64,000 nucleotides of DNA. It comes from Candidatus Omnitrophota bacterium (GTDB taxonomy: Bacteria; Omnitrophota; Gorgyraeia; Gygaellales; Profunditerraquicolaceae). Location: contig QZKH01000003.1 in NCBI GenBank assembly GCA_003598025.1, positions 234,048-298,047 on the forward strand, in the 5' to 3' direction. The notes below the pieces were generated by a model. The model was not told the origin of the DNA. It did no database searches and saw only the letters and a program-made list of their open reading frames with translations. Position 1 is the stretch's first letter; the number at the start of each line of letters is the position of its first letter. Shown in pieces: positions 20,121 through 63,504 of this stretch. The position numbers were made by a program, and so were the translations under genes.

Positions 20121-21347
20121 CTATTGAAATCGGATTTTTACTGACTCCATATGCTTAGATAAACCCTCTATTGAAGCGATCTTTTCAAGAGGCTCCCTGA
20201 CTTTCTCAAGTGATTTCTTTGAATAGCTTATAATATGGTTGCATTTAAGAAAATCGCAAACAGATAATCCGGAGAAAAACCTGGCAGTCCCCGAAGTAGG
20301 CAATACATGGCTGGGCCCTGCAACATAATCCCCCACTGCGGTAGGAGAATACGGCCCGAGGAAAATCGCCCCTGCGTTTTTAATGCCCCTGACAAGCCTC
20401 CTGGGGTTATTAACAAGTATCTCCAGGTGTTCAGGCGCTATTCTGTTAGCTACATCAACAGCCTGTGATAAGTTCTTCGTAAGGACGATAAAGCCATTCA
20501 TGCCTTCCAGACTTGATTTAATTAATTTAGCCATCTTCTTTGAATTCGTAATCAATACTGCCAAGCCCTGGGCGTGCTCAGCCTGCGCTTTTAAATCGGC
20601 TATTATAAATTTAGGGTCGCTGAATTGATTAGCGATGATGACTAATTCTGTGGGGCCTGCGATCATATCGATATCCGTATAACCAAAAACCTGGCGCTTA
20701 GCTTCACTCACATACATATTCCCCGGCCCGACTATCTTGTCAACTTTAGTTATGGTCTTTGTCCCGAAAGCAAGAGCGGCTATGCCCTGAGCGCCGCCTA
20801 CTCGGTATATTTCATTTACTTTTAACAGATCAGCGACAACCAATATATGCGGGTTAATGGCGCCATTAGCATCGGGAGGACTGATTAAAACTATCTTTTT
20901 AACACCGGCGATTTTTGCCGGTAAGACTGTCATATAAACACAAGAGACCAGCGGCGCTGTCCCTGCCGGTATATAAACCCCGACCTTCTCAATAGGCTCG
21001 TATTTTTCACCGAGGATCACGCCATCTGAACCCCTGGTCCTCCATGACCTTTTAAGAGTTTTATTATAAAACTTAGTAACATTATCGATAACTATCTTTA
21101 AATTCGAGACAAAATCCGGGTTTATATTCTGATAAGCGCCGCTTATATCTGCTTCAGCAACTTTCAACTGCCTTAACTGCATTTTGACTTTATCAAATTT
21201 CTTTGTGTATTTCAAAACTGCATCATCACCGTTAAAACGGACATCTTCGATGATCTTTTTAACCTTTTCCTCAATCCGCCTATAGCGGATTTGACCGCGG
21301 TTATAAATCTTGTCCAGTTGTTTGCTTGCAGGCCGTATTATTTTCAT
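20121..21347 (-). CDS. hisD: histidinol dehydrogenase
   Basis: 408 aa. HisD motifs ...AGPTE..., QAEH, and GDYVAGPSHVLPT. Confidence 0.92.
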   Translation of the reverse strand: MKIIRPASKQLDKIYNRGQIRYRRIEEKVKKIIEDVRFNGDDAVLKYTKKFDKVKMQLRQLKVAEADISGAYQNINPDFVSNLKIVIDNVTKFYNKTLKRSWRTRGSDGVILGEKYEPIEKVGVYIPAGTAPLVSCVYMTVLPAKIAGVKKIVLISPPDANGAINPHILVVADLLKVNEIYRVGGAQGIAALAFGTKTITKVDKIVGPGNMYVSEAKRQVFGYTDIDMIAGPTELVIIANQFSDPKFIIADLKAQAEHAQGLAVLITNSKKMAKLIKSSLEGMNGFIVLTKNLSQAVDVANRIAPEHLEILVNNPRRLVRGIKNAGAIFLGPYSPTAVGDYVAGPSHVLPTSGTARFFSGLSVCDFLKCNHIISYSKKSLEKVREPLEKIASIEGLSKHMESVKIRFQ

Positions 21348-23962: not shown

Positions 23963-24425
23963 AACTAGTAATTGAATCTATAATGAGGTTGGCAGGAAAC
24001 CCGCGCCTGGCAAGATACGAATAGAGCCTGTTCCTTCTTTTGCTTGGCTCCAGCTCAGCAAGTTGTTTTGATTTCTTCATTATCAAACCTTTGATTACTT
24101 CAGCCTCAGAATATTTCCCCGTTAAATCTTTTATCGTTTGATCAATAATATTATTCGAGACTCCCTTAAGCTTGAGTTCGTATTTTATTTTAGTAATACC
24201 GACTCCGCGGCTAATCCTGGTTTCAGCCCAATTCTTAGCAAATATATTATCATCGATAAAGTTATGCTCTAACAACCAGTTAATGACATTATTTATTACC
24301 CCTGCATCGTATTTCTTGCTTTTCAACCTCCGGGTTAATTCGGCAACGCTTCGCTGCCTGAATTTGAGAAGAAGAAAGGCATAATTCCTTGCCTTAATTA
24401 TCTGCGGGTTATCTATCTTGTCCAC
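23952..24425 (-). CDS. recX: recombination regulator RecX
   Basis: 157 aa helical-repeat protein with a GTG start. Lies immediately downstream of recA on the same strand. Confidence 0.8.
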   Translation of the reverse strand: MDKIDNPQIIKARNYAFLLLKFRQRSVAELTRRLKSKKYDAGVINNVINWLLEHNFIDDNIFAKNWAETRISRGVGITKIKYELKLKGVSNNIIDQTIKDLTGKYSEAEVIKGLIMKKSKQLAELEPSKRRNRLYSYLARRGFPANLIIDSITSYES

Positions 24426-24426
24426 C

Positions 24427-24546
24427 TGGTATAATTATGAAGCTCCCCGAGCTAAAGCCCGAGGTTTCTTGGAGCGAAATACTGAGCGTACACACTCCCT
24501 CCGCACCTTTCAAGGTGCGGTTTTTGTGGCCGCGAACTTATAAAAT
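24427..24546 (+). ncRNA. candidate small RNA / repeat element copy 1: extended -10 promoter (TGgTATAAT at 24427-24435) followed by about 100 nt conserved element ending in hairpin 24501-24520 + TTTTT
   Basis: Plus strand, antisense to the recA-recX spacer. Homologous copies lie at 62499-62597 (+) and 16459-16552 (-). Hairpin ccgcaccttt-caa-ggtgcgg is followed by ttttt. Confidence 0.5.
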
Positions 24547-24595
24547 GTCGCCGGCGAATTTAACCAATGCGGCTTGCGCGCATTAAACGCTTAAA

Positions 24596-25618
24596 CTAAA
24601 TCTTCTTCCTTAACTCTTTTTCGATTGTTTCCTGCAGTTTAGGATTTTCCTTAAGCAGTTTTATAGCTGCTTCTCTTCCCTGCCCGATTTTCTCTTCGCC
24701 ATAAGACAACCAGGCGCCGCTTTTGTTTACTATTTCGGCGCTGATCGCAGCATCAAGTATGCTGGCAGTCTTTGATATGCCCTCATTATGCATTATCTCA
24801 AACTCTGCTTCCCTGAAAGGCGCAGCGACCTTGTTTTTTACTACTCTAGCCCTTACCCGGTTGCCTATTACCAGGTCATCTGATTTCAAAGTGGCGATTT
24901 TTCTTAAATCTATCCTCACAGATGAATAAAACTTAAGCGCCCTGCCTCCGGGTGTGGTTTCAGGAGAACCGAACATAACCCCGATCTTCTCCCTTATCTG
25001 GTTTATAAAAACCATACATGTTCGTGATTTACTGATAGCGCCAGTCAATTTTCTTAAGGCCTGGGACATCAATCTTGCCTGTAAGCCTACATGCGAATCA
25101 CCCATTTCCCCCTCAATTTCAGCACGGGGAGTCAGCGCGGCGACAGAATCAATGATAACTAAATCAACGGCATTTGAACGCACAAGCGTCTCTGCAATTT
25201 CTAGAGCCTGCTCACCGGTATCCGGCTGAGAGATTAATAGATCATCCAGGTTAACACCAACGATTTTGGCGTAATTTGAATCAAAAGCATGCTCTGCATC
25301 AATAAATGCAGCTACTCCTCCTAACGATTGGATCTCTTTAATAAGCGACAACGTAAGAGTTGTCTTTCCGGAAGCTTCAGGGCCATATATCTCAATAACC
25401 CTTCCCCTAGGAAAACCGCCGACACCAAGGGCCAAATCAAGGGTTAATGCGCCTGTAGGGATAACTTCCACATTAACCTTTACATCTGAACCCAGTTTCA
25501 TTATGGAACCTTTACCGAATTGTTTTTCGATCTGCGATAAAGCCAATTCAAGTGCTTTTTGGCGGTTAGATAGGTCTTTTGCGGGATCCTTTTGCAAAAC
25601 TTTCTTATCTACAGTCAT
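24596..25618 (-). CDS. recA: recombinase RecA
   Basis: 340 aa with Walker [10 protein letters not shown] and a conserved L1/L2 region. Confidence 0.97.
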
Positions 25619-26070: not shown

Positions 26071-26112
26071 CTGACATTGACACTTATCTTAAAATATGCT
26101 ACATTTTCTTTC

Positions 26113-27303
26113 ATGGATGAATCAATACAAAAGGTTAAGCAGGATCTTGAAAAGACAAAAGCAGAGCTGGCCATTCTCTATGAAGTCTCAAATGCAATGC
26201 GCACAACTCTTAAGCTTGATGAGATCCTTTATATAATCCTTACCGGTGTTACAGCCCATACCGGGCTAGGCTTTAACAGGGCGATTCTTTTTCTTGTTAA
26301 TGAAAATGAATCAATCCTTGAAGGAAAAATGGGCATAGGCCCTGAAACCGGAGAAGAGGCAAACCGTATATGGAACCAGATAGAACATGAAAACATGGGC
26401 CTGGATGAGCTTATAAGTGTCTATAAATCTTCGTCATTCAATGTCCTTGAATCCGGGTTCAACCAACAGGTCAGGCGTTTCAAGATACCGCTGGCAGAGA
26501 AGAATGATGACCTCTTTGCCCTGGGAGTGATGGAGGGGATGCCGCTCCTGCTTACCAAAGATGCAATAAAAGGTTACACAAATTACCCGGTGATACGCGA
26601 GTTAAAAAGCGAAGAACTCGCCATTGTCCCGCTAAAAGCTAAAGACAAGATAAACGGCCTCATCATAGCTGATAATTTTATTACAAAAAAAACCATAACT
26701 AAAGATGATATGCGTATGCTTGTCATGCTGGCTAACCAGGCAGGTCTTGCAATTGAAAACTCACAGCTTTTTGAGAAAACAATGCTCAGGGCCCACTCAG
26801 ATTCACTGACCGAATTATGGAACCACGGTTATTTTCAATATCTGCTCCAGACAGAAATTGACAGAGCCAGAGCGACAAACAATAAACTAAGCCTGATAAT
26901 GCTCGATATAGACGATTTTAAGATTTATAACGACCTTTCGGGACATCAGTCAGGGGACAGGATACTGAAAGAACTGGCTAGATTATTAAAGAACCAGTCA
27001 AGAAAAATGGACCATGTATGCCGTTATGGAGGAGAAGAATTCACCATTATACTACCCCACACCGAAGGCAACGAAGCTTATATGATAGCTGAACGCTTAA
27101 GAGAAGATGTAGAAAAATATCCTTTTTGGAAAGAAGAACTGCTTCCGAATAAAAAAGTTACGATAAGTATGGGGATTGCCACTTTCCCAATGGACGGGAA
27201 GAGCTCATCAGAGCTGATATCGGCATCCGATATAGCCCTATATCAAGCAAAAGCAAAAGGAAAAAACAACACCTTCCTCTACAAAACCCCAACCGGTATT
27301 TAA
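26113..27303 (+). CDS. GAF domain-containing diguanylate cyclase (GGDEF)
   Basis: N-terminal GAF-like region, then GGDEF domain with RYGGEEFTIILP and an upstream inhibitory-site-like RxxD. The ORF-track start at 26077 is a TTG inside the heptamer array; the first ATG is at 26113. The only plus-strand gene in the window. Confidence 0.85.
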   Translation: MDESIQKVKQDLEKTKAELAILYEVSNAMRTTLKLDEILYIILTGVTAHTGLGFNRAILFLVNENESILEGKMGIGPETGEEANRIWNQIEHENMGLDELISVYKSSSFNVLESGFNQQVRRFKIPLAEKNDDLFALGVMEGMPLLLTKDAIKGYTNYPVIRELKSEELAIVPLKAKDKINGLIIADNFITKKTITKDDMRMLVMLANQAGLAIENSQLFEKTMLRAHSDSLTELWNHGYFQYLLQTEIDRARATNNKLSLIMLDIDDFKIYNDLSGHQSGDRILKELARLLKNQSRKMDHVCRYGGEEFTIILPHTEGNEAYMIAERLREDVEKYPFWKEELLPNKKVTISMGIATFPMDGKSSSELISASDIALYQAKAKGKNNTFLYKTPTGI

Positions 27304-30300
27304 GCGGGGACAAGGTCAGCCTGTTTGTCTTTTATCCCTTTATTCTGGGAAAATTTAACTGAGACAATCTTGGAAACCCCAGATTCTTCCATTGTAATAC
27401 CGTACATTACATCAGCATTCGCAATTGTCTTCTTGTTATGCGTAATTACGATAAACTGGGAGGTTTCTGTAAAGTCCTGCAGTATCCTGCCGAACCTGTC
27501 AACATTTGCTTCGTCAAGAGCAGCATCAATCTCATCTAATACACAAAATGGTGCAGGTTTAACCTTGAATATCGCAAACATAAGCGCTATTGCAGACATG
27601 GATTTCTCCCCGCCGGAAAGAAGCAGGACATTTTGCAATTTCTTTCCCGGAGGCCTGCATACAATTTCAATGCCAGACTCAAGCGGGTCCTGCTCATCAA
27701 TAAGAAAGATCTGACCGTCACCCCCGTTAAATAAAAGCCTGAAGTAACTGCGGAACTCCTCCCTGACTTTTTCAAATGTCTCAAGAAACATCTTTTTTGT
27801 CGTGCGGTTTATCTTTAATATGGCTTCATGCAGCGATTCCTTAGAAGAAACCAGATCGTTCTGCTGCTGCACGAGAAAATCGTAACGCTTCTTAAGCTCA
27901 TCGTATTCTTCTATTGCAACAAGGTTAACCGAACCGTAAGAATCAACCCTGTTCTTGAGTTTTTCTATCTCTTGAGTTAGTACGTTTTCATCAATAGTGT
28001 CTTCGCTATGAGTCTCCTGCTCTGCCCCTAAATCAAGTTTATATGCCTGTAAAATCCTATCTTTGATGCTTTGGCACTGAAAATCAAGGTCCTTCTCCTG
28101 CATTTGTATTTCATAGATCCTGGCTTTTACCGCTTCAGCTTCTTTTCTGTTTGATTCTATCATTTTTACCGTTTCGCTTGTGCCTTCAGAGAGTTCCCTG
28201 AACCTGGCCTCATTTTCTTTTAGCATTTCCTGTTTGACGACTATCTCCTTGGCAAGTGCCTCGGAGGAAATACGCAAACCGCTGATTTCAGAATTAAGCG
28301 CTTCCTGTTTCTTTGACGCATCCTGCAATTGGGTATCTATACTCATTACTACATCCCTGTCCTGCTCGTAAGTTTTTTTAAGCATCATGACCGTTTCTTC
28401 TTCAGAATCTTTCTTCTCAAGCAATGCCTGTAGCTGTGTTTTTGCTTCGGCGATAGATATAAGCACGCCCTCTTTCTGCTCATTAGTAAATGTGATATTA
28501 TTTTGCTCTTTAATAATCAACGACTCCTGGGCTTTATTATTATCTTCGAGCTCTTTTTGCTGCTGGCTTATAGCCATGACTTTACCGGTAATAACCGAAA
28601 GTTCTTTGCCAAGGTCATTTAATTCAATTGTTATTACTTCCTCTTCTTCCTTTAATTTACTAAACTGTGCAGAAACCGTTTCATGATAAGCCTTTTTATT
28701 GGCTAAATTAATTTCTACAGTGCGCAGTTCTTCCTGCACCGCCGCCAGGCTTGCCTCAAGCTCTTTAATAATCAACTCCTTTTTCTCCTTGACCAGCCTT
28801 AATTCCTGTAATTTCTTATTAACCGAATCAATCAGCTGCTCAACCCTCTGCGCATCAAGATCAATCGGCTTTGCTTCTCCGGTAAGCCTTAAATTATCCT
28901 TATCATACGATTTGATCCTGACAACAAGGCCGTTCAAAATATCTGCTGGAAGCCTGTCTATCTTTATTTCGGCTTCCATAGATTCGCCGATATCTTCATA
29001 TCTGTGTTTAAGGTTGATCAGGAATTCACGCTGTGATTCAAGGGAAAGAAGCTGTTTTTCAAAACTATCTATTTCACTCTCTAGGCCAGTGAGTTCGCCG
29101 GCCTGGGACTGCCGCTCGGATTTTAATTGCTGTATCTTTTCATTAATACTTGCAAAGTTTGACTCCATAGCTGATAATTCAGAAGTTACCAAATTAAGGC
29201 TCTCTTCAATAAGGCTCTTTTCCTCGGTTATCTTTGCGTTCTCAACCTGAAGCCTTTTCTTTCTGGCAAGAAAAACCTGCTCCTGCGAGATCAGATCCGT
29301 AATCTGGTTCTTGGCTGAAGATATTTTGGACATCAATTCAAGGATATGTTTCTTGGCATTTGCTATTGCGTCCACAGAAGACCTTACGGAAAGATTAAGC
29401 TGACTGAGTTCGTCTTCTTTGGACCGGATATAGGTGTTCTTTTGGCTTATATCACTGCTGAGAGAATCAAACTCATTCTTGACCTTCATGAATTTTTCTT
29501 CATCGAATGACAGTTTCTCTTTGACTTGAGTGAGCTGTTTAGACAAATAAATCTTTGTTAATTCAAGTTCCTGTATTTTTTCTTTATTAAAATTTACCTT
29601 TTCATTGGCCCTAAAATCCTGATTATTAAGGTCAAGAATTATATCTTTGATTTTTCTGAGACTGTCTTCAATCCCTGCCAGCTCAACCTGCCTTCCGCTT
29701 ATATTCTCCTCATCCTGGCAAATTGCGGCGGACAGCTCGGCTTCTTTCGCCGTAAGTTGAGCAACATTATTCCTTATGTCATCCTTTTCAGTTAACAACC
29801 CTTTGATATGGCTGCTGGCGAGTTTAAATTCCTTAAGCTTTAATTCCTCAAATGCCTCCTTATACTTACGTGCCTTGTTAGCCTGTCTTTCCAAAGAGGA
29901 GATCTGTCTATTTACTTCAACGATTATATCATTTACCCGTAATAAGTTCTGCTGGGTTTCTTCCAGCTTCCTCAGCGCTTCTCTTTTCTGAGATTTATAT
30001 TTAGTGATCCCCGAGGCTTCATCAAAAACAAGGCGCCTGTCTTCCGGTTTGGAACTTAAAAGAAGGTCGATCTTGCCCTGTTCAACAAGAGAATAACTCT
30101 CGGCACCGATACCTGTGCCCATCAATAACTCCAGGATGTCTTTGAGCCTTACCTGGGTTTTATTAAGAAGGTATTCGCACTCCCCTGACCTAAAAATCCT
30201 CCTGGTTATCAAGACTTCCTCACTGTCAACGGCAAAATACCTGCCCTTATTATCAAAAGCAAGGCTGACTTCGGCCATGCTTAAAGGCTCTTTGGCATCT

Positions 30301-30506
30301 GTGCCGTTAAAAATAACATCAACCATGTCAGACCCTCGCAATGATTTTACTGATTGTTCTCCCAGCACCCAGCGCATGCTGTCAAATATATTGGATTTAC
30401 CGCAGCCATTCGGGCCGACTACTGCGGTAATACCGGGCTCAAATTGCAATACGGTTTTGTTAAGGAATGACTTGAATCCCAAGATCTCCAGCCTTTTTAA
30501 ATACAT
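27300..30506 (-). CDS. smc: chromosome partition protein SMC
   Basis: 1068 aa. Has an N-terminal Walker A (GPNGCGKSN), long coiled coils, a hinge, and a C-terminal signature LSGGEKSMSAIALMFAIF plus Walker B VLDEIDAALD. Confidence 0.93.
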   Translation of the reverse strand: MYLKRLEILGFKSFLNKTVLQFEPGITAVVGPNGCGKSNIFDSMRWVLGEQSVKSLRGSDMVDVIFNGTDAKEPLSMAEVSLAFDNKGRYFAVDSEEVLITRRIFRSGECEYLLNKTQVRLKDILELLMGTGIGAESYSLVEQGKIDLLLSSKPEDRRLVFDEASGITKYKSQKREALRKLEETQQNLLRVNDIIVEVNRQISSLERQANKARKYKEAFEELKLKEFKLASSHIKGLLTEKDDIRNNVAQLTAKEAELSAAICQDEENISGRQVELAGIEDSLRKIKDIILDLNNQDFRANEKVNFNKEKIQELELTKIYLSKQLTQVKEKLSFDEEKFMKVKNEFDSLSSDISQKNTYIRSKEDELSQLNLSVRSSVDAIANAKKHILELMSKISSAKNQITDLISQEQVFLARKKRLQVENAKITEEKSLIEESLNLVTSELSAMESNFASINEKIQQLKSERQSQAGELTGLESEIDSFEKQLLSLESQREFLINLKHRYEDIGESMEAEIKIDRLPADILNGLVVRIKSYDKDNLRLTGEAKPIDLDAQRVEQLIDSVNKKLQELRLVKEKKELIIKELEASLAAVQEELRTVEINLANKKAYHETVSAQFSKLKEEEEVITIELNDLGKELSVITGKVMAISQQQKELEDNNKAQESLIIKEQNNITFTNEQKEGVLISIAEAKTQLQALLEKKDSEEETVMMLKKTYEQDRDVVMSIDTQLQDASKKQEALNSEISGLRISSEALAKEIVVKQEMLKENEARFRELSEGTSETVKMIESNRKEAEAVKARIYEIQMQEKDLDFQCQSIKDRILQAYKLDLGAEQETHSEDTIDENVLTQEIEKLKNRVDSYGSVNLVAIEEYDELKKRYDFLVQQQNDLVSSKESLHEAILKINRTTKKMFLETFEKVREEFRSYFRLLFNGGDGQIFLIDEQDPLESGIEIVCRPPGKKLQNVLLLSGGEKSMSAIALMFAIFKVKPAPFCVLDEIDAALDEANVDRFGRILQDFTETSQFIVITHNKKTIANADVMYGITMEESGVSKIVSVKFSQNKGIKDKQADLVPA

Positions 30507-37188: not shown

Positions 37189-38712
37189 TCACTTCCCGAT
37201 TCTTTTCCTCAGCTCGAACCTGTAACTCCATCTGGATTTAGAAATAGGTACCCCAAAAATATTGTTTTGGATACCTATAAACGTGCTCTTAGAAACATTA
37301 TAATTATACTTGAGATGGCTTTTATAATAAGTATATAACGACATGACGCCCACCATTGGCTCAGAAGGGCTTCCGCTGCCATTCCCGGAAAAAACTAAAT
37401 AATCATATATATCAATCCTGTAAGGATGCAGTGAAAAAGTCAGATCATAAGTAGTGTAATCACCTGCCAGCATATACCATAACTCCGGGGCTACCATTAC
37501 ACTGGAGCCGGAAGGGATACTATTTCTTAATATCCGTCTGTTATAATCGTAAGTATCTGCCTTTGTCCAGGTGGCGGGGAGAAGTATGTTCATCCTTATA
37601 AAAGGCAGGCAACCGATAAAAATAAATAAAAGTATAACCCTGATGAATTCTTTTTTAGTGGCGATTTCTTTGTTTGTCAAAAATACGACGGTAGAAATAA
37701 AAAATATTAAGAACGCCTGCGTATACATATGCCTGAGGGTAAAGACAAAAATCAGGATTAGGATAGATATTATCAAGCCTAAGAAAATCGGCAGGTTAAC
37801 TGTGTCTTTATGTTTATTCTTCCGGCTCGTTAAAGACCTGACAGCAATGTAGAAAAGAAATACACTCAACGGCAGGTAAAATAATGTGTCTGCATAACGG
37901 ACATGGGTAATAACCGAATAAGATACTGCCCTGACAAAATCGTCGCTTATAAAAAATAATGCATAACTTAGAGCCTGGCTTAAAATAAGCTTATAATCAA
38001 ACCCGGAAGCTGCAAGCCATGCGAAAAGAGTTAAGAATAATCCGATTAAAATGCTAGCAATTAGCTTGATGAAGCTTTTAATACTATTCCGGCAATAGCC
38101 TAAGAATATACTTGCCGCAAAAAAAATGATTAATAACCCAAGCCAAAAAGAAGTTGCAAGACATAAAAAGGACGACAGTAAAATAAAAATGCTATTCCTG
38201 AAAGAATTAATTTCTTTATATTTAATTGCAAAGTAAACCAATGCCAGCCCAAAAAATACAGCCAGGGTATCAGGTCGCGAAATTCCCTTGATCGCCAAGA
38301 TCCATGAAAAAAATATCAATCCTAATATATATACCGGAGGTTCGTCATCAGCGAAGATTTTAAAAAGTTTATACTGCGCATAGGCAACAAAAAGGCATAT
38401 CAAGAGCGATAATGCTAAACTGGAAGATATTGAAAAACCGAAAATCATAAACCATACTCCATAAATAAACGCATACACGGGAGGATACCACACCGAACAA
38501 TTTTCGACTCCCGGCCTGTAGCCAAAAACCCCCGGAGACGCAAAAGTATGATTTAAGGCAAAATTCCTTGCCGGCTCTTTAAAGATCATTTCGTCTGTAG
38601 AAGGAAAAGGCAGCTTAAATATGTAAAGGTAGAAGCTGATTAAAAACAATAGCAGCCAAAAGATTATTACCCGGTTCTTATGCAACATATTTTTAAGTTC
38701 TGGCAATTGCAT
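37189..38712 (-). CDS. polytopic membrane protein, putative GT-C-fold glycosyltransferase (PMT_2/ArnT-like)
   Basis: 507 aa with more than 10 predicted TMs, a DE motif in the first loop (STDEMIFKEPARN) and an aromatic-rich C-terminal soluble segment. The assignment is tentative. Confidence 0.45.
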   Translation of the reverse strand: MQLPELKNMLHKNRVIIFWLLLFLISFYLYIFKLPFPSTDEMIFKEPARNFALNHTFASPGVFGYRPGVENCSVWYPPVYAFIYGVWFMIFGFSISSSLALSLLICLFVAYAQYKLFKIFADDEPPVYILGLIFFSWILAIKGISRPDTLAVFFGLALVYFAIKYKEINSFRNSIFILLSSFLCLATSFWLGLLIIFFAASIFLGYCRNSIKSFIKLIASILIGLFLTLFAWLAASGFDYKLILSQALSYALFFISDDFVRAVSYSVITHVRYADTLFYLPLSVFLFYIAVRSLTSRKNKHKDTVNLPIFLGLIISILILIFVFTLRHMYTQAFLIFFISTVVFLTNKEIATKKEFIRVILLFIFIGCLPFIRMNILLPATWTKADTYDYNRRILRNSIPSGSSVMVAPELWYMLAGDYTTYDLTFSLHPYRIDIYDYLVFSGNGSGSPSEPMVGVMSLYTYYKSHLKYNYNVSKSTFIGIQNNIFGVPISKSRWSYRFELRKRIGK

Positions 38713-45886: not shown

Positions 45887-46882
45887 TTAATTCTCTCTTA
45901 GGATTTTTGCAGCAAGTTCCGGCGGCGTTGGCACGACGTAAAAACCTGAGCCCCATTCAAAACCAGCTAACCTGGTTAATTTAGGCATAAACTCTATATG
46001 CCAATGATAGCTGTCATAAACAGTATCTCCGTTAATCGGAGAAGAATGCACTATATAATTATAAGAAATATTTGAAAAAACTTTTTTTAGCTTGGTAACT
46101 GTATCCTTCAGGATTGAAGCTAATTCAGGTATCTCTGCATCTGCCATATGGCAGAACCTGCTATTATGAGCTTTAGGCATAATCCAGATTTCAAAAGGGA
46201 ACCGCGAAACGAACGGGCAAAAAGAAACAAAGTACTTATTCTCTATTATTACCCTTTCTTTTTCCTGAAGCTCCTGCCTGATTACATCACAGAAAATACA
46301 ACGGTCTCTATAGTCATAATAGTTCTTTGAACCCTTCAGCTCTTCTACCGCACTCTTGGGGACCATAGGAAGAGCGATAATCTGGGAATGCGGGTGCTCA
46401 AGAGAGGCGCCTGCTGCAGGGCCAAAATTTTTGAATATCATTATATATTTGAACCTGTGGTCCCGGGCTAAATCCCTTGCACGGGAGCAAGACATCGAGA
46501 TATAGCTTTCAATTTCGCTGTTAAGAAGACTGGGGATATCCTTATAATGGTAGGGGCTTTCAATCAATATTTCATGAGCGCCAACACCATTTGACATATC
46601 ATAAATGCCTACGCCTCTGCGGTCTAAATCACCTTCAATCTGTAAAGCCGGAAATTTATTAGGAACTACCCTTACTTGCCAGCCGGGAGAATTAGGTGAA
46701 GACCCATCGATCCTGACGGCATCGATCTCAGGCGGAGTCAGCTTTTCGTTACCATAGCAAAAAGGACAAATCCCGCCCTTAAAAGCATGCTGCTCATATT
46801 CAAAATCCGCAGGCAAGGCCGGATGGTCAGTATCAACAATTACCCATCTGCCGCCAATAGGATCCCTTCGTAACTCTGACAT
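45887..46882 (-). CDS. galactose-1-phosphate uridylyltransferase family protein (HIT-like, canonical HPH active site)
   Basis: 331 aa. Has the Zn motif CPFCYGNE and the nucleophile motif LEHPHSQII. This is GalT class I / ADP-glucose phosphorylase-like. Confidence 0.8.
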   Translation of the reverse strand: MSELRRDPIGGRWVIVDTDHPALPADFEYEQHAFKGGICPFCYGNEKLTPPEIDAVRIDGSSPNSPGWQVRVVPNKFPALQIEGDLDRRGVGIYDMSNGVGAHEILIESPYHYKDIPSLLNSEIESYISMSCSRARDLARDHRFKYIMIFKNFGPAAGASLEHPHSQIIALPMVPKSAVEELKGSKNYYDYRDRCIFCDVIRQELQEKERVIIENKYFVSFCPFVSRFPFEIWIMPKAHNSRFCHMADAEIPELASILKDTVTKLKKVFSNISYNYIVHSSPINGDTVYDSYHWHIEFMPKLTRLAGFEWGSGFYVVPTPPELAAKILREN

Positions 46883-46884
46883 AT

Positions 46885-47913
46885 CTATACCTCAACCTCT
46901 CTTAAATATTTAGCTGAATCTTCAGGCGATAAAGGACATATATAAAAACCTGTACCCCATTCAAAACCTGCTACCTTTGTTAGGCGCGGGATTATTTCGA
47001 TGTGCCAGTGATAATCATTATCAATGCTTTTCCAGTAACCAGACTTAGGCCTTCTAAACGGCGCAGTGTGTAAAACATAATTATAAGAAATATCATTAAG
47101 GCCTACCTTGATTTTTTGAAGTATCTTTTTCATAACTTTGGCAAGGTATAACCTATGTTCCGGCTCGATGTTGACAAAATCGCAGGAATGCTTCTTTGGC
47201 AAAATCCATACTTCAAAAGGAAACCTCGCCGCAAACGGCGTAATGGCAATAAACCCGTCTATATCAAGGATAACTCTTTCTTTAGATGACATCTCCTGGT
47301 TGATTAAATCACAAAAAATACACCTTTCATGGTATTCATAATAAAGCCTTGCGCCTTTAAGCTCTTCTTTGACTCTTTTTGGGTTAACAGGTGTTGCAAT
47401 AAGCTGGGAACGCGAATGTTTTAGCTTGCTGCCCCCGGCAGACCAGCCGTAATTCTTAAAAACTAAAACGTATTTAAAACGCTCATCCTTTTCCAGATCC
47501 CTTATGCGGTCAACATAACAGGCCAGTACCTTGGATATTTGCTGTTCTTCTAGATCAGCCATGTTAGCTATATGCTTATTCGTCTCGACAACGATTTCGT
47601 GCGCACCGATGCCGCTCATAAGATCATACAAGCCCCTGCCATGCCGGTCAAGCTGACCTTCAATCCTTAAAAATGGGGCAATACTCGGGACAACCCTGAG
47701 TTCCCATCCGGGGCTGTTTTTCGCAGAACCGGTTGGCCTGACAGCATATATTTCAGGGGGAGTTTGGGATTCATGCCCCTGGCAGAAAGGGCACGAAGGA
47801 GCTTCCTCCTGTCCATTCGTGGGGGCAATACCGAATTGATCTGGCCTGCGCAACCGCTCAGTTGCTACAATAACCCACCTGCCTATAATCGGATCTTTTC
47901 GTAATTCTGGCAT
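46885..47913 (-). CDS. GalT-family paralog with substituted active site (HSR instead of HPH)
   Basis: 342 aa, collinear with the downstream paralog. CPFCQGHE is retained, but the nucleophile motif reads LKHSRSQLI. Confidence 0.75.
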   Translation of the reverse strand: MPELRKDPIIGRWVIVATERLRRPDQFGIAPTNGQEEAPSCPFCQGHESQTPPEIYAVRPTGSAKNSPGWELRVVPSIAPFLRIEGQLDRHGRGLYDLMSGIGAHEIVVETNKHIANMADLEEQQISKVLACYVDRIRDLEKDERFKYVLVFKNYGWSAGGSKLKHSRSQLIATPVNPKRVKEELKGARLYYEYHERCIFCDLINQEMSSKERVILDIDGFIAITPFAARFPFEVWILPKKHSCDFVNIEPEHRLYLAKVMKKILQKIKVGLNDISYNYVLHTAPFRRPKSGYWKSIDNDYHWHIEIIPRLTKVAGFEWGTGFYICPLSPEDSAKYLREVEV

Positions 47914-48013: not shown

Positions 48014-48976
48014 CTAATGCAAACAATTTTTAAAAACATCGCCGAGAATAACCTTATGCCCTGCAATAAAATCACCGGCCTTCATTGCTTTTTTATTCTC
48101 TGCCTGCAGTTCTTTTATGGTCACTGCTCCGTCGCCTGTTTTAACGACTATCCCTGCCTTAGATACTTCCAGTATCTGACCGGGTTTATATCCGCTGCCA
48201 AAACTATCATTAACTAACTCTAATTCTAGTATCCTCAGTAATTTTCCATTCAAATAAGAATAGCTGCCGGGCCAACCCAAACAGCCCCTGACATGGTTAA
48301 TAATGGCCCTGGAATGCTTACTCCATTCTATAAGCCCGTCTTCTTTCTTGAGTTTACGCGCATATGTAACTTTAGATTCTTCCTGAGGAATCAAGGTATA
48401 TTTACCGCTTGGAATTGAGCTTAAAACTTTAATGACTAATTCTGCGGATAATTCTGAAAGTTTCTCTGCCAAAGTAACGGCCGTATCGCTTTCGTTGATC
48501 TGAATAGACTTTTGGCAAATAACAGGCCCGGCATCCATTTTAGTGTTAATTTTAATAGCCGAAACTCCAGTATATTTTTCGCCGTTAATCAACGCCCAAT
48601 TAACCGGAGCAGCACCCCTGTATTTAGGGAGGAGAGAAGCGTGCATATTAAATGCCATAATTTTTGCGGTTTTTATCACAGCAGAAGAAAGAATCTGGCC
48701 ATATGCAATAACTACAAGCAGGTCCGGATCTATTTTTTTTAATGTTACTAGACTGACAGAATCGTTTATATCCTGCGGTTGATAGGTCTTGATCCCTAAA
48801 TCCTGGCATAGCTTCTTGACTGGAGTAGCGCAAATTTGCCTGCCTCTTCCCTTAGCTCTGTCGGGCTGAGTAAACACGCAAGCCACGTTATAACCGTTAT
48901 CGAAAATAGCCTTTAACGGCTTTACGGCAAACTCAGAACTGCCTAAGAAAACAATATTCATCTTTCTCTTATCCAT
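48014..48976 (-). CDS. fmt: methionyl-tRNA formyltransferase
   Basis: 320 aa with a formyltransferase N-domain (NIVFLGSSEFAV; HASLLPKYRGAAPVNWA) and a C-terminal tRNA-binding domain. Confidence 0.93.
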   Translation of the reverse strand: MDKRKMNIVFLGSSEFAVKPLKAIFDNGYNVACVFTQPDRAKGRGRQICATPVKKLCQDLGIKTYQPQDINDSVSLVTLKKIDPDLLVVIAYGQILSSAVIKTAKIMAFNMHASLLPKYRGAAPVNWALINGEKYTGVSAIKINTKMDAGPVICQKSIQINESDTAVTLAEKLSELSAELVIKVLSSIPSGKYTLIPQEESKVTYARKLKKEDGLIEWSKHSRAIINHVRGCLGWPGSYSYLNGKLLRILELELVNDSFGSGYKPGQILEVSKAGIVVKTGDGAVTIKELQAENKKAMKAGDFIAGHKVILGDVFKNCLH

Positions 48977-48979
48977 ATT

Positions 48980-50827
48980 CTAAACCGGGTCCATGTCTAT
49001 GGTTATTATTATACCTGAATGAGAAACTTTTTTTAAGCATCTTTTTATCAAGGCAGACATCGCCAATGGCCTGCTTCCTTTTGTAACTATATTCCAGTAG
49101 AAATTGCCCCTTATCTTAAATGGCTGCGCCTGCTTTAACGATAACACCTCTAAGCTTCTGCCATCAGTTTCTTTGGTAATAACCTCAAAAAACCGGTTAG
49201 CGCAATCAGAGACTTTATTTTCATCGGGGGAACGTAATTTTATTACAGCTAAATGCTTATAAGGCGGAAACCCCAGCTGTTTTCTGAAATCCATCTCAGG
49301 TAAGATAAACTCTTCGGGATTATTATTTTTTAAAGACTTAAAAACATAATGTCCCGGCATAGAAGTTTGGATGATCATTTTAGCCGTGCACAAATTTAGC
49401 AGCCCCCGCAATAATAATAATGTTTTTTCTGCAGAGCGGAAATCTATCCTGCTTAACATGCTATCAATATTTAACACACATACCAAGTCAAATTTTTTGC
49501 TGTCTAAGCTTAAAATATTTTTATTTGCGATAACAATGTCTGCATAGCTTGAGCCTGCTTCTTGTGCATGCTCAAGCTTTACGATCCTGGCTCTGGGAAA
49601 AAGCCTGTATATCTGGCTTTCTACTTTTTCAATGCCTATGCCTTCATATCTTATGTAATCCGAGTTGCATTGAGGGCAAAGCCTAGGAGCGGCGATACTA
49701 TAATTACAATAGCTGCAGCTTAAGATGTTTTTCTCGTAGTAATATACCAGGTTTACGCTGCACCTCGGGCACTCAAGCTCATAGCCGCACTTTAAACAAC
49801 TTCCATAAGATGCAAAACCTTTCTTATCAAAATATACCAGCACGCTGCCTTTGTTGCTTAGAGTCGAATCAATTACTCCTTGTAAGTACCTGGAAATCTG
49901 CTCTGTTTTCTTCGTGTTACCCTTAAAATAAGTCCTATCGTCTAAGATGAAGATATCCCTGACAGCCTGCTCAACGGCAACTTCATTAAAATCAATATTC
50001 TTATCTCTACTTAACAAAACTGTTTCGAGTGGCCTTGCTACTGAGCCCAAAATCAAACTTGTGCCATTTAATTTTGCCCTCATAATTGCCACCTGGCGTC
50101 CGCTATAATGAGGCACCTGATCCTGCTTATACACATAGTCAGTTTCTTCATCAATTATAATCAATCCTTGATTTTGAAGTGGCGCAAATACCGCGGAACG
50201 CGTTCCTACGATAATATTTACTTCTCTATTCCTGATCTTCAGCCATTCCCGAAGCTCTGATGGGCTTTTTCTAAACAATGTTGAAATCACGGCATTAGGT
50301 ATTTCCGCAGCCCTCTCTTTGAACCTGGCGACCTTTAAAATATCCGGCAGCAAAATCAATGCCTGCTTACCTAAATCAATACATTTTCTTAACTCATTTA
50401 AATAAAAATCCCAGCGCCCCTGTCGATCTGCGTTAATCAATGAAGTGATACTGGCCCTTGAGGTTTTAGGCAGATTTTCCTGAGCCTTTCCCAACTCAAG
50501 CCCTTTCTTGCAGCTTCTTGACTGCCAAGGCAAAGCTGTATCAATAACCTCACCCCACGAACAACAGTAATACTGCGATACCAATTTTGTAAGCCGTAAT
50601 AATTCCTTGCTTAATATAGGGGCATCATCAAGCAAACTTATTATAGGTTTAACGTTCTTTATTGAACTTTGTTTTGATACCCCGACAATATAACCGACGC
50701 ATTTCCTGGCTCCGAATGTAACTAACGCCCTCATGCCTGGGACAACACGGGGCACGAATGCAGCCGGAACCGAATAATCAAATGGACCGTCAACCGGAAT
50801 AGGTATTACTATTTTAACGTATAACAT
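48980..50827 (-). CDS. priA: primosomal protein N' (PriA) with degenerate helicase motifs I/III/VI
   Basis: 615 aa. Has the PriA 3'BD N-terminus, DEET Walker B (IIIDEETDYVYKQDQ) and a Cys-rich zinc-binding region (CLKCG...CPRC...CSYC...CPQC). The Walker A position reads ADRQGRWDFYL instead of GxxGSGKTEVYL. Confidence 0.8.
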   Translation of the reverse strand: MLYVKIVIPIPVDGPFDYSVPAAFVPRVVPGMRALVTFGARKCVGYIVGVSKQSSIKNVKPIISLLDDAPILSKELLRLTKLVSQYYCCSWGEVIDTALPWQSRSCKKGLELGKAQENLPKTSRASITSLINADRQGRWDFYLNELRKCIDLGKQALILLPDILKVARFKERAAEIPNAVISTLFRKSPSELREWLKIRNREVNIIVGTRSAVFAPLQNQGLIIIDEETDYVYKQDQVPHYSGRQVAIMRAKLNGTSLILGSVARPLETVLLSRDKNIDFNEVAVEQAVRDIFILDDRTYFKGNTKKTEQISRYLQGVIDSTLSNKGSVLVYFDKKGFASYGSCLKCGYELECPRCSVNLVYYYEKNILSCSYCNYSIAAPRLCPQCNSDYIRYEGIGIEKVESQIYRLFPRARIVKLEHAQEAGSSYADIVIANKNILSLDSKKFDLVCVLNIDSMLSRIDFRSAEKTLLLLRGLLNLCTAKMIIQTSMPGHYVFKSLKNNNPEEFILPEMDFRKQLGFPPYKHLAVIKLRSPDENKVSDCANRFFEVITKETDGRSLEVLSLKQAQPFKIRGNFYWNIVTKGSRPLAMSALIKRCLKKVSHSGIIITIDMDPV

Positions 50828-60649: not shown

Positions 60650-61345
60650 TTACTTCATCCTCTCTTTTAATGCCCAAAGATATATCCGGATATAATTAGG
60701 CAACAGCCTGAAAACCTTAAAACTGGATTTACCCTTTTCTCTTTCTTTCCATTTTGTGGGGACTTCTGTCACCTTGAAACCATTAAAATAAGCCCTTAAA
60801 GCCAGCTCCATCGATACCTCAAAGCCTTTAGAATAGATAGTTATGCCTTTAATAGCTTCCTTACGGTACATTTTAAAGGCATTTGCTATATCATGGGTAG
60901 GTACACCGATAAGTAAATGCACAGTAAAACCTCCTAACCGTGACAGCATAGCCTTGAATTTCGGCCCTCCCTGCCTCAAACCCCCTTTAATATATCTTGA
61001 GCCGCAAACAACATCATAACCCTGTATTATTTTATCATACATTTTATTGACAGTTTGAAGTTCGTCACACAAATCCGCCATTACCGGCAACAAAACATCT
61101 CCCTTGGCGTTTCCGATACCGCACATTATCGCATTAGCAAAGCCCCTCTCTTTTTCATTATTAACCAGCACTAAGTTAGGATAAGAAGTAGCTAATCTAT
61201 TTACCAATGCATGCGTATTATCGGTCGAATGGTCATTCACGACTACCAGCTCATGCTCTGGTAGCATGGCCTGTTCAAGCTTACTAATAACATCAGCGAT
61301 ATTTGCTTCTTCGTTATATGCAGGGATGATAATAGAGAGTTTCAT
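60650..61345 (-). CDS. glycosyltransferase family 2 (polyprenyl-phosphate sugar transferase-like)
   Basis: 231 aa: LSIIIPAYNEEANI...VVNDHSTDNT...MADL. Confidence 0.85.
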   Translation of the reverse strand: MKLSIIIPAYNEEANIADVISKLEQAMLPEHELVVVNDHSTDNTHALVNRLATSYPNLVLVNNEKERGFANAIMCGIGNAKGDVLLPVMADLCDELQTVNKMYDKIIQGYDVVCGSRYIKGGLRQGGPKFKAMLSRLGGFTVHLLIGVPTHDIANAFKMYRKEAIKGITIYSKGFEVSMELALRAYFNGFKVTEVPTKWKEREKGKSSFKVFRLLPNYIRIYLWALKERMK

Positions 61346-63504
61346 TTAATCAATTTGAATATTTTAATCGTATTATTAGAAAAAACCTCTTTAAATTCAC
61401 CGGGATGTTCAATTGCCCAGTAATATTCTATAGGAAATTCAATCTTTTCAGTCTGATGAAGAGAATAGATAAAAATGAAATCGGTATTACGCCTTTTAAG
61501 ATTGACCAGCCAAATATTATAATCGGCATTCCCGCGGTAATTATTTGGCTCATTTAAATTCTCATGTAATGAGGTAAAATTATAACCCCATTCGTATGAA
61601 CTGTCACTAAAATAATGGGGCATAGCCGGGTCGGTTTTATTGACCGAAACATAATAAACATTATTTTTAAAACCTGTGCCATAAAGCGGGTATACCACCG
61701 GCCTGCCGGCGTAGGCGATATTGTTTGATTGGGTATTATTATTGAGCCATTCCCAGGCATAGGTTGCTTCAGGCCAAAATCCTGAATATTCAACCATTTT
61801 TACATATCTTTTATATTCGTTACGTATATAGAATTTCTGGGCAAGGGTAAGCCCTAAAAAACAGCATAATGCTATTAAGGTTAATGCCCGAACATCCGGT
61901 CTGAATCTTAAAATCGAAGCCTGTCTCTTAATTAAAAAATAAAACAGGGCAAATGTAAGTAATCCGGAATTGGCCAATTCCCAATATGAGGATAACTCCA
62001 GGGACGGAAAAACGATACATAAAAAAATAATAATGGTAACTGCTTTTTTATTTATTCTGAGCTTCTGTATTAAAAAGAATGCGAGCACCATTCCTATAGA
62101 TAAAGCTGCAAATAAATACCTTAAATTAGCAAGGGGTATCACATACCTGTAGGTTAAATACATTAAAAAAGGCAGGATCGAAAAATAAAGCAAAAAATAG
62201 TCTTTTTTGGATTTATTCTTTACAAATATATAAACCGGGGCTATAAGCGAAGCCGGAAGGGTAAAAAATAACGTCTGCACGCCCAAGCCTTCATGGAAAA
62301 GGGCTTTTATCAGGCTATAATCTTCCGGTTTGAAATGAGCCCGGTAAATGACCGGCTCCATGACACCACGTAACAATCTAAAACCGAATAATTCTACATT
62401 AAGCGGATAAAGCGGGTTACCGGTATTTATATAATTCCTCAGATAAGAGTATCCTCCCAAAAACAGCACGGAAATAATAAAAAGAAAAATGGAGCTCATC
62501 GGGCTAAAGCCCGAGGTTTCTTGGAGCGAAACACTGAGCGGCCCAACTCCATCCGTACCTTTAAAGGTGCGGTTTTGTGGCCGCGAACGTATAAAACCCG
62601 CTTTCTTTATCTCTTTAAAAGAAATAAACACATATGGCATAAACAACAACAAACTGTAAGGCAGCCCTACAGTCTTAGTCCCCAGAAGAAGCCCGATACT
62701 TAAACCAAAAAGTATATTATTTTTTAGCGAAAATTCTTCATACAATAATAAAAGAAAATATAAAGCTGACAGGAAATAAAAACACACCATCAGGTCAACA
62801 TAAGCGATCTCCAGCTGTTTAAAATAATTTGGCATCAGCGAGAATAAAGATGCCGCAAATAATGAATAGGGCGAAGATACCCCTATCTTTCTTGCCAATG
62901 CATAAGTTGCCGTAAAGCTAAGCGCAAAAAAGGGAAGCTGCCCCAGGTCAGCGACAAATACGCTCCTAAAAGGCATGATAAGCCATAAGTAGAACAGGCT
63001 GCCATTTATTGGATAATACGAAGGGCTGGGATCGTCAAAAACCGTGATCGGGATGTTTAAATTCCTGTTTTTAAGCCATTCCACAGCAAAGGTAAAATGA
63101 TAATTTAAAGAATCCCAGCCAAAAGGCGGATTGAAAAGATTGATAGAAGATTTAATTACAACAAATCCCGTAATTGTAGAAATAGCTAAAAGTAATAATT
63201 TGCTTTTAAGTAGATCCCCAAGATTAGTTCTTACGTCCTTAATGGAAGGGTTAATTACCGGCCTATTAAAAACAAACATAGTTAAAAACATTATAATCAA
63301 ATTTAAATATATGAGATTTTCAAGGGTCAATGCCCCGGCAATACCTAAGGCCTGTTCTGACAGAATAATCTGCGAAACGTAAATAATAAATGCGCAGATC
63401 AGTGATTCGGCCAGGCCTACAGGCTTAAATCCCCTAAAGGTGATTAGAAAAGCATTAAAAATTACGATAGCATTCATAAATATGCAAGCAAGCAGCATTC
63501 TCAT
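61342..63504 (-). CDS. GT-C-fold membrane glycosyltransferase (ArnT/PMT-like) carrying an in-frame about 33-codon repeat-element insertion
   Basis: 720 aa with more than 12 predicted TMs and a C-terminal soluble domain. The segment IKKAGFIRSRPQNRTFKGTDGVGPLSVSLQETSGFSPM is encoded by repeat-element copy 3 (62499-62597). Confidence 0.6.
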   Translation of the reverse strand: MRMLLACIFMNAIVIFNAFLITFRGFKPVGLAESLICAFIIYVSQIILSEQALGIAGALTLENLIYLNLIIMFLTMFVFNRPVINPSIKDVRTNLGDLLKSKLLLLAISTITGFVVIKSSINLFNPPFGWDSLNYHFTFAVEWLKNRNLNIPITVFDDPSPSYYPINGSLFYLWLIMPFRSVFVADLGQLPFFALSFTATYALARKIGVSSPYSLFAASLFSLMPNYFKQLEIAYVDLMVCFYFLSALYFLLLLYEEFSLKNNILFGLSIGLLLGTKTVGLPYSLLLFMPYVFISFKEIKKAGFIRSRPQNRTFKGTDGVGPLSVSLQETSGFSPMSSIFLFIISVLFLGGYSYLRNYINTGNPLYPLNVELFGFRLLRGVMEPVIYRAHFKPEDYSLIKALFHEGLGVQTLFFTLPASLIAPVYIFVKNKSKKDYFLLYFSILPFLMYLTYRYVIPLANLRYLFAALSIGMVLAFFLIQKLRINKKAVTIIIFLCIVFPSLELSSYWELANSGLLTFALFYFLIKRQASILRFRPDVRALTLIALCCFLGLTLAQKFYIRNEYKRYVKMVEYSGFWPEATYAWEWLNNNTQSNNIAYAGRPVVYPLYGTGFKNNVYYVSVNKTDPAMPHYFSDSSYEWGYNFTSLHENLNEPNNYRGNADYNIWLVNLKRRNTDFIFIYSLHQTEKIEFPIEYYWAIEHPGEFKEVFSNNTIKIFKLIK
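62499..62597 (+). repeat. about 100 nt repeat element copy 3, inserted in-frame within the GT-C glycosyltransferase CDS
   Basis: About 85% identical to 24447-24546. The hairpin ccgtacctttaaaggtgcgg + tttt is retained. The -10 box is degenerate (aaaaat). Confidence 0.8.

Follow-up and report, generated by a model that had tools for sequence, protein, structure and literature searches.

The window analysed here is a 64-kb stretch (64,000 nucleotides, positions 234,048 to 298,047) of contig QZKH01000003.1 from a Candidatus Omnitrophota bacterium. At 48980-50827, on the minus strand like all features of the gene given below, it carries a priA gene whose product, PriA, has degenerate helicase motifs and lacks the winged-helix domain. 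The open reading frame (ORF), of 615 amino acids (aa), is uninterrupted. It lies in a tightly packed, operon-like block, in which its start overlaps an upstream glycosyltransferase gene by 14 nt and the methionyl-tRNA formyltransferase gene fmt (48014-48976, minus strand; Pfam Formyl_trans_N/C) begins 3 nt past its stop. An earlier reading of the letters, made without database searches (the sequence-only reading), had named the protein PriA, and the profile searches bore this out. The score against TIGR00595, the NCBIfam equivalog model of PriA, was 317.2 bits, above the cut-off of 230.35 bits, which places the protein in the PriA family; none of the full-length sub-models of PRK05580 reached its own cut-off (best, 383.9 bits versus 813). 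In Pfam, PriA_3primeBD (PF17764) matched residues 5-100 (E 5e-28), Zn_ribbon_PriA (PF18319) residues 353-377 and PriA_C (PF18074) residues 522-614 (E 1e-12), and the generic DEAD profile stayed below its threshold (18.4 bits versus a cut-off of 26). The nearest sequence relatives in the PDB are the Klebsiella and E. coli PriAs (phmmer, E ~1e-54), and a record identical to the 615-aa protein, on a 567-kb contig of a Candidatus Omnitrophota metagenome-assembled genome, is named "primosomal protein N'".

The helicase motifs were compared with those of canonical PriAs and with those of the best 120 homologs (575-646 aa, 39-45% identical to the query), hereafter the family. In motif I, LINADRQGRWDFYL (50399-50440) stood opposite the canonical LAG(V/I)TGSGKTEVYL in three independent alignments, namely that of phmmer with Klebsiella PriA and two made by MAFFT with E. 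coli PriA. Instead of GxxGSGKT, the site of Walker A has NADRQGRW; K230 of E. coli corresponds to R138, T231 corresponds to W139, and the glycines of the P-loop are lost. The Lys and Thr are thus indeed gone, as the sequence-only reading had stated, and this is not an error in placing the motif, since the pattern [AG]xxxxGK[ST] occurs nowhere in the 615-aa protein. Motif VI, LLRGLLNLCTAKMIIQT (49364-49414), was likewise rightly called unrecognisable: both arginine fingers are lost in the alignments, and where the canonical QVAGRAGRAGKQGE spans QVAGRAGR and the loop after it, the query has GLLNLCTA and lacks 5 aa. We can add two motifs to this list. Motif Ia reads ALILLPDILKV (50330-50362) where the canonical form is LV.PEI.LTPQ, so that the canonical PEIGLTPQ (PEIxLTPQ) has become PDILKVAR in the Omnitrophota PriA, and motif V reads IVIANKNILSLDSKKFDLVCV (49475-49537; canonical GTQM.AKG..FP), with ANKNILSLDSK in the place of the canonical GTQMLAKGHHFP. 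As for motif III (LGSVARPLE, 50024-50050), the altered GSVARPLE had been read correctly in the query but is not a trait of the family, in which the motif is only mildly changed (GSxxP, with Pro in 102/120 and Glu in 120/120) and the GSVAR of the query is an outlier. The acidic residues of Walker B are kept (DEET, residues 226-229). The query therefore lacks a functional set of ATPase/helicase motifs, with motifs I and VI gone and the acids of motif II retained. Because the acidic Walker B is the sole ATP-contacting motif left, a helicase-dead primosome protein, which was the earlier proposal, is the best reading. An Mfd-like superfamily 2 (SF2) helicase encoded in the same window (10253-12193, minus strand) has intact GYGKTEV, DEEQ and QLRGRVGR sequences, and since its motifs are those of the textbook, the loss is specific to PriA rather than a property of the genome or of the assembly.

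The protein had also been noted to be about 100 aa shorter than a typical PriA. This is correct, and the difference is mainly a deletion of about 90 aa that removes the winged-helix domain, which the earlier reading did not name. Between the 3′-DNA-binding domain (3′BD) and motif I the query has 24 residues, where ten canonical PriAs (seven phyla or classes) have 108-197; of the approximately 115 residues that the query lacks overall, about 90 belong to the winged-helix domain. In their place, the alignment leaves a short linker (residues 101-126; 50450-50527), in which no helices or strands were modelled and the predicted local distance difference test (pLDDT) score is low.

Structure prediction points in the same direction. 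An AlphaFold2 model made without templates from 73 sequences of the family (pLDDT 87.9; predicted template-modelling score 0.86) has the overall fold of PriA, with a bilobed SF2 RecA-like core, an embedded cysteine-rich region (CRR) as well as the C-terminal domain (CTD). In Foldseek, its nine best matches were all PriA, with template-modelling (TM) scores of up to 0.89 (8fak_H, E. coli PriA), and the next family was Mfd (E 1e-12). As a canonical control, we modelled the Listeria PriA (pLDDT 94.1), in which a 5-residue loop, VTGSG, follows the first β-strand and the catalytic Lys is the first residue of the first α-helix. The corresponding loop of the Omnitrophota model has three residues (NAD), and the helix sets in three residues before that point, placing R138 and W139 within it. 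Similarly, the loop between helix and strand in motif VI comprises 10 residues in the Listeria model (SGRAGRHERT) versus one in the Omnitrophota model. The predicted models thus agree with the sequences in that neither a phosphate-binding loop nor arginine fingers appear to be left. We also considered whether the model adopts a resting "CRR-up" loader conformation, because it resembled the fork-bound structure 8fak, of 2023 (TM 0.89), more than the apo form 4nl4 or the form 6dcr, which lacks the winged-helix domain (TM 0.73). This idea was rejected, because the canonical Listeria model has the same preference (8fak, TM 0.87, root-mean-square deviation 5.5 Å, versus 0.73-0.74 and 9-12 Å for the apo crystal forms), so that the preference reflects how AlphaFold treats PriA in general.

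Is this state peculiar to one genome? Every homolog in the family whose source is named comes from Omnitrophota or Omnitrophica, and all are of the short type. None of the 120 has a P-loop at the site of motif I, a motif V or a motif VI; the substitutions are therefore shared by the orthologs throughout, and belong to the whole clade rather than to one genome. The residues that replaced the canonical ones are themselves conserved: the consensus of the dead P-loop is L-I-H-D-L-D-G-x-x-R-W-D-I-Y-L, in which Arg occurs in 112/120 homologs (Lys in 6), Trp in 116/120 and Y142 in 120/120, and 54 columns are invariant among the family sequences. A control set of 150 canonical PriA cluster representatives, less than 50% identical to one another, was used for comparison, a search seeded with the Listeria protein having been too shallow (all hits at least 96% identical). 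In this set, the P-loop is present in 150/150 sequences and motif VI in 149/150, the exception being a truncated sequence. In canonical PriAs, the two helicase lobes are the best conserved parts (mean identity 44-46%), and the 3′BD (28%) and the CTD (23%) are the least conserved. In the family, by contrast, the mean pairwise identity is 64% in the CRR, 55% in the 3′BD, 54% in helicase domain 2, 53% in the CTD and lowest, 44%, in helicase lobe 1. Conservation has thus moved towards the CRR, the 3′BD and the CTD and away from lobe 1. Because all 120 homologs are both intact and degenerate, their replacement residues are conserved and the conservation has shifted in this way, selection appears to maintain the state; judging from these sequences, it is a lineage trait of a whole deep, large Omnitrophota clade and not decay.

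The features that have been retained point to a function, namely specificity for forks and D-loops together with a grip on the single-stranded DNA (ssDNA) of the lagging strand. The earlier reading was right about the 3′-DNA-binding N-terminus, the DEET Walker B and the four pairs of Cys. First, in the 3′BD (residues 5-100; 50528-50815; PF17764), the pocket for the 3′ end is formed by F16, D17, Y18 and K60; F16, D17 and Y18 are conserved in 119/120 homologs and the column of E. coli K61 in 116/120. In PriA, this pocket binds the nascent leading strand's 3′ end (PMC5778457). Second, lobe 1 retains motif Ib (VGTRSAVF, 50186-50209), with Gly in 112/120, Arg in 115/120, Ser in 117/120 and Phe in 120/120 homologs, and, at 50093-50158, the Walker B DEET (D in 110/120, the middle E in 91/120, E228 in 120/120) followed by the aromatic-rich loop (ARL), YKQDQVPHY..R. 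In E. coli PriA, the ARL lies as a wedge at the fork junction (PMC10175261; PMC5175346). K234, Q237, P239, H240 and Y241 of the ARL are each conserved in 120/120 homologs; compared with E. coli, K328 and Y335 are kept and Q, P and H replace E331, W333 and R334, again in all 120. Such invariance, with no ATPase to couple to, suggests that the contact with the junction is itself the selected feature. Third, motif IV with its basic pair (49811-49840) aligns as DKKGF in the query and as NR(K/R)GF in the family, in which the R427 column is Arg in 116/120, the R428 column Lys or Arg in 113/120 and the Gly invariant (120/120). In the pore of E. coli PriA, this pair touches the lagging-strand ssDNA, and E492 and H455 stabilise the rotated state of the CRR (PMC13594977); the E492 column is kept in 118/120 homologs and the H455 column is His or Tyr in 114/120. 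Fourth, the CRR (49667-49798; PF18319) has four CxxC pairs that make up two Zn sites, and its eight cysteines (residues 344, 347, 353, 356, 371, 374, 384 and 387) are all invariant among 73 aligned sequences. The CTD (PF18074) occupies 48986-49264.

The surroundings of the gene are also those of a priA. The order is coaBC-priA-def-fmt-rsmB in Bacillus and coaBC-priA-fmt-rsmB in Listeria, and the window has priA-fmt. Because the profile score, the fold, the domain set and this synteny agree, we regard the gene as an orthologous priA. Two further loci (L064 and L065), whose PriAs belong to the family and share about 42% identity with the query, carry genes for a haloacid dehalogenase-type hydrolase and a monogalactosyldiacylglycerol synthase, priA, fmt and a gene of the galactose-1-phosphate uridylyltransferase (GalT) family, as in the window. 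Directly downstream of fmt, the window has two tandem GalT/HIT-like genes (45887-47913, minus strand); the pair is kept in L064, and the shorter contig of L065 ends past the first copy. The longer L064 adds, besides the second GalT gene, a glyceraldehyde-3-phosphate dehydrogenase gene and a spermine-synthase-like gene, matching the block in the window. Within the 64 kb, no second PriA was found by a six-frame profile scan, no DnaB or helicase loader was found among the genes, and no known partner gene of PriA lies near priA. The window also encodes RecA and RecX, which would supply D-loop substrates for PriA.

What might a PriA without a motor do? Lopper, Boone and Morrow reported in 2015 that the PriAs of Deinococcus-Thermus have poor motifs I and II, with Arg in place of the Walker A Lys; the D. 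radiodurans protein showed no ATPase or helicase activity in vitro, bound ssDNA, fork DNA and DnaB, and comes from an organism without priB and dnaT (PMC4504706). This is the case of another phylum without helicase activity to which the sequence-only reading had referred, and a review of 2017 treated Deinococcus as the sole exception among PriAs (PMC5778457). Like this "pseudohelicase", the Omnitrophota PriA is degenerate across its phylum and has Arg at the K230 column (R138; Arg in 112/120). Unlike the Deinococcus-Thermus proteins with their poor motif II, it keeps D-E-E, and it has lost the winged-helix domain, a loss not reported for Deinococcus-Thermus PriA (PMC4504706). The two phyla are distant, and the comparison is one with the published description, not with sequences: the forward primer used to clone D. 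radiodurans priA (PMC4504706) had no match in the genome contigs searched, the core of the reverse primer had 49 chance matches there, in unrelated high-GC genomes and none of them in Deinococcus, and no Deinococcus or Thermus record was among the matches listed in our searches of a plasmid collection. From the distance between the phyla and the difference in motif II as described, the Omnitrophota loss is likely to be independent of that in Deinococcus-Thermus.

[quoted passage not shown] The Omnitrophota PriA combines naturally two changes that have been made separately in the E. coli protein, that is, the ATPase-dead K230R/A (priA300) and the removal of the winged-helix domain (PDB 6DCR), and the crystal form without this domain was one of the model's best structural matches (TM 0.73). 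However, each E. coli variant carries one change in a PriA that is otherwise canonical and that depends on PriB and DnaT, whereas in the Omnitrophota protein motifs Ia, V and VI are also lost and the PriB-docking residues are not conserved. To our knowledge, PriB and DnaT are not to be expected outside some Proteobacteria. A literature search for an Omnitrophota PriA, or for a documented PriA pseudohelicase in actinobacteria, returned nothing specific.

Taken together, these observations suggest that the orthologous, single priA of this lineage has probably turned into a pseudohelicase, which would neither bind nor hydrolyse ATP, has no winged-helix domain and would serve as an ATP-independent scaffold at forks and D-loops for reloading of the replisome. 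The analysis shows the identity of the family, the fold, the states of the motifs, their conservation across the family and the synteny; that ATPase and helicase activity are lost, that the role in restart is retained and what the partners are we infer from the sequences and the models. In this reading, the protein most likely resembles E. coli PriA K230R and the D. radiodurans pseudohelicase. In this scheme, the two RecA-like lobes would stay as a structural and DNA-binding scaffold, the ARL of lobe 1 would be placed at the fork junction, and the lagging-strand template ssDNA would be held by the basic pair of motif IV, the CRR and lobe 2. The winged-helix domain, now lost, is the part that contacts the parental duplex. 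Surfaces of the CRR and the CTD could then recruit the next factor, either DnaB directly or its loader, possibly together with SSB. Because the motor would be absent, such a protein could act only at forks that already expose lagging-strand ssDNA, or else another helicase or SSB would have to expose it.

Several points weigh against this interpretation. The DEE of Walker B is kept and E228 is invariant (120/120), which pure loss does not explain. Among the 120 homologs, the residues of the E. coli pocket for the SSB tail are not clearly conserved. Neither are the E. coli PriB-docking residues, as is expected from the narrow distribution of PriB. The inventory of priA and helicase genes extends over 64 kb, the contig measuring at least 567 kb, and a second, canonical priA or a helicase that compensates may lie elsewhere in the genome. 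In E. coli PriA, a second nucleotide site, weaker than the known one and so far without a location, has been proposed (PMC5778457).

The alternative that survives best, itself improbable, is that the protein still binds DNA but that its role has moved away from replisome reloading, for instance to fork protection, to the binding of recombination intermediates or to regulation. Lost are the winged-helix domain and the ATPase, as well as the residues with which E. coli PriA meets PriB and SSB, and no known partner gene lies nearby in the 64 kb. However, the features most strictly kept are precisely those that confer fork and D-loop specificity and the grip on lagging-strand ssDNA, the CRR and the CTD are better conserved than in canonical PriAs, and the helicase-dead Deinococcus PriA binds both forks and DnaB (PMC4504706). 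Moreover, PriA has been called essential in mycobacteria, whose relatives carry a degenerate form (see below).

A little less probable again is a neofunctionalised paralogue, with a canonical PriA encoded elsewhere in Omnitrophota genomes. A stretch of 64 kb out of at least 567 kb leaves room for such a gene. Nevertheless, the short priA sits at the ancestral priA-fmt locus that is common to Firmicutes and scores above the equivalog cut-off of TIGR00595, no second PriA-like ORF occurs in the window, and, among the best 120 homologs, all proteins named "primosomal protein N'" with Omnitrophota as their source are short and without a P-loop.

We consider it very unlikely that ATPase or helicase activity persists in the protein through a non-canonical nucleotide site, made up either of the R-W P-loop and DEE or of a second site. 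The retained D-E-E with its invariant E228, the presence of Arg or Lys in the Lys column of 118/120 homologs, the conservation of motifs Ib, IV and, in part, III, and the weaker site proposed for E. coli PriA (PMC5778457) could be taken in its favour. Yet K230R by itself kills the ATPase of E. coli PriA (PMC5778457), and the D. radiodurans protein, with the same change from Lys to Arg, is inactive in vitro (PMC4504706). In the Omnitrophota PriA, furthermore, all the P-loop glycines are lost, the Mg-coordinating Thr is now a bulky Trp, motif V and both arginines of motif VI are absent, the model has a shortened anion-hole loop and the DEAD profile remains below its threshold. Finally, a decaying pseudogene or an artefact of assembly or frameshift, for which nothing beyond the loss of the motifs speaks, can hardly be entertained in view of the uninterrupted 615-aa ORF in a tightly packed operon-like block, the 120 intact homologs with their 54 invariant columns, the confidently predicted fold and the synteny conserved in L064 and L065.

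The pseudohelicase that we favour for Omnitrophota may have a counterpart in Actinomycetota. A tblastn search of the plasmid collection, which includes misfiled chromosomes, with E. coli PriA yielded PriAs from many phyla, among them those of Tsukamurella (L051, 1440-3431), Nonomuraea and Microbacterium, and we then added 120 proteins of Mycobacteriales (P0391-P0510). The Actinomycetota PriAs are short (about 640-700 aa), have no winged-helix domain (43-57 aa from the 3′BD to motif I) and are degenerate in motifs I, II, V and VI. Like the Omnitrophota proteins, they keep motif IV and the eight Cys of the CRR and have a small deletion after motif VI. In the literature, mycobacterial PriA is called a "primosomal helicase" and essential. 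Some of the actinobacterial proteins go by the name "Probable replication restart protein PriA" in their source records, others by "primosomal protein N' family DNA-binding protein". These names are consistent with UniProt, which presumably flags the mycobacterial and Streptomyces PriAs as being without detectable helicase domains. As observations on single sequences, the PriA of Nonomuraea gerenzanensis (L061) has a Pro/Gly-rich insertion of about 54 aa inside the CRR, and the annotated Microbacterium PriA (L062, 1489-3411) has no CRR Cys and a C-terminal half that looks frameshifted, and was not relied on.

In their details, the two groups differ. The K230 column holds Arg in Omnitrophota and Asp in Actinomycetota; Walker B reads DEE versus WDDGD and the ARL YKQDQVPHY versus EPRxPYPH; and the Omnitrophota proteins match PriA_C and Zn_ribbon_PriA in Pfam, whereas the Actinomycetota proteins match PF27106 and neither of these two. 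PF27106 was absent from the precomputed domains of every Omnitrophota match. Against the best PRK14873 (actinobacterial) model, the query scored 194.8 bits with a cut-off of 812, which leaves it outside that family. We also built a neighbour-joining tree from Kimura distances with 200 bootstraps, on few taxa and with three actinobacterial sequences. The Omnitrophota and Actinomycetota clades each had a bootstrap value of 1.0, and a bipartition uniting them had 0.21 with all columns and 0.005 with the columns of the ATPase motifs masked. A grouping of the two had appeared at 0.92 when a single actinobacterial sequence was used, falling to 0.34 once the motif columns were masked, and was rejected; since its support falls both with masking and with three actinobacterial sequences, we treat it as an artefact of motif loss and long branches. 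The mean identity is 29% between Omnitrophota and canonical PriAs and 21% between Omnitrophota and Actinomycetota, and the best matches of the query in the plasmid collection were canonical Firmicutes PriAs. From this simple distance tree of few taxa, we conclude that the Omnitrophota loss appears to be independent of the actinobacterial one. The earlier claim of an independent instance is therefore supported with respect to Actinomycetota, the other degenerate lineage sampled in the tree.

One residue nevertheless recurs. The dead P-loop of the actinobacterial proteins, ALPG-EDW, ends in a Trp that is invariant (117/117), and this Trp falls in the column of W139 (T231 of E. coli) both in a MAFFT alignment of 123 sequences and in hhalign (probability 99.95%, 23% identity). 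A smaller MAFFT alignment shifts it by one column; two of the three alignments thus agree, and the registration is good to one residue. The presence of Trp at the former P-loop Thr in both losses suggests that it matters for the structure, for instance by occupying the nucleotide pocket left empty. We tentatively speculate, while holding it doubtful, that PriA becomes a stable pseudohelicase by this common structural route, with an indole "plug" in the pocket, and that a minimal PriA is enough for fork recognition and for direct recruitment of the helicase without PriB and DnaT. In Omnitrophota, the Arg beside the Trp may pair with the retained acids of Walker B. On the same speculation, the Omnitrophota protein would be the minimal natural PriA, consisting of the 3′BD, a locked dead core, the CRR and the CTD.

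Loss of the helicase in PriA is seen in the field as a peculiarity of Deinococcus. If our interpretation is correct, a new and independently evolved PriA pseudohelicase extends across a large Omnitrophota clade, and, as the Omnitrophota and actinobacterial sequences suggest, whole phyla would restart replication with a PriA that has neither motor nor winged-helix domain. This would support the idea that the core job of PriA is structure-specific recognition of the fork and recruitment, and that unwinding is an add-on. The naturally minimised 615-aa protein should be a useful tool to ask which surfaces recruit DnaB without PriB and DnaT, what the CRR does without a helicase and why the ARL is invariant without an ATPase. 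It also follows for annotation that helicase activity should not be assumed for an Omnitrophota "primosomal protein N' / replication restart helicase".

Further PriA sequences were encountered in the course of the searches. Large plasmids that carry their own priA, the product being 35-39% identical to E. coli PriA, were found in 15 Pseudomonas and 6 Vibrio records; these are Pseudomonas aeruginosa replicons of 160-200 kb and Vibrio replicons of 240-320 kb, and they look like genuine plasmids. In the 297-kb replicon of Candidatus Stammera capleta, an open fragment of about 99 aa (L060, 2501-2971) matches residues 232-364 of E. coli PriA and is probably a priA remnant in this highly reduced insect symbiont.

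As for the rest of the window, the Mfd-like protein is only 646 aa long, with a UvrB-interaction domain from residue 5, an RID, two helicase domains and no TRCF C-terminal domain; a typical Mfd has about 1150 aa. Its gene is bounded by secDF upstream and by a possible SurA-like ORF (9358-10290) downstream, and because it is so tightly bounded, the short length is not due to a frameshift; it may be a second domain-minimised DNA-repair protein in this genome. Two ORFs, of 720 aa (61342-63504, minus strand) and 507 aa (37189-38712, minus strand), had no Pfam match at E <= 1e-5. After filtering for the longest, 56 of the 59 ORFs in the window run on the minus strand and three, among them a GGDEF gene (26077-27303), on the plus strand, and the GC skew is negative in every 2-kb bin, which is consistent with a location of the whole window in a single replichore with strongly co-oriented genes. 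The recA and recX genes mentioned above form a recA-recX-alaS cluster at 21344-25618, and smc lies at 27300-30506.

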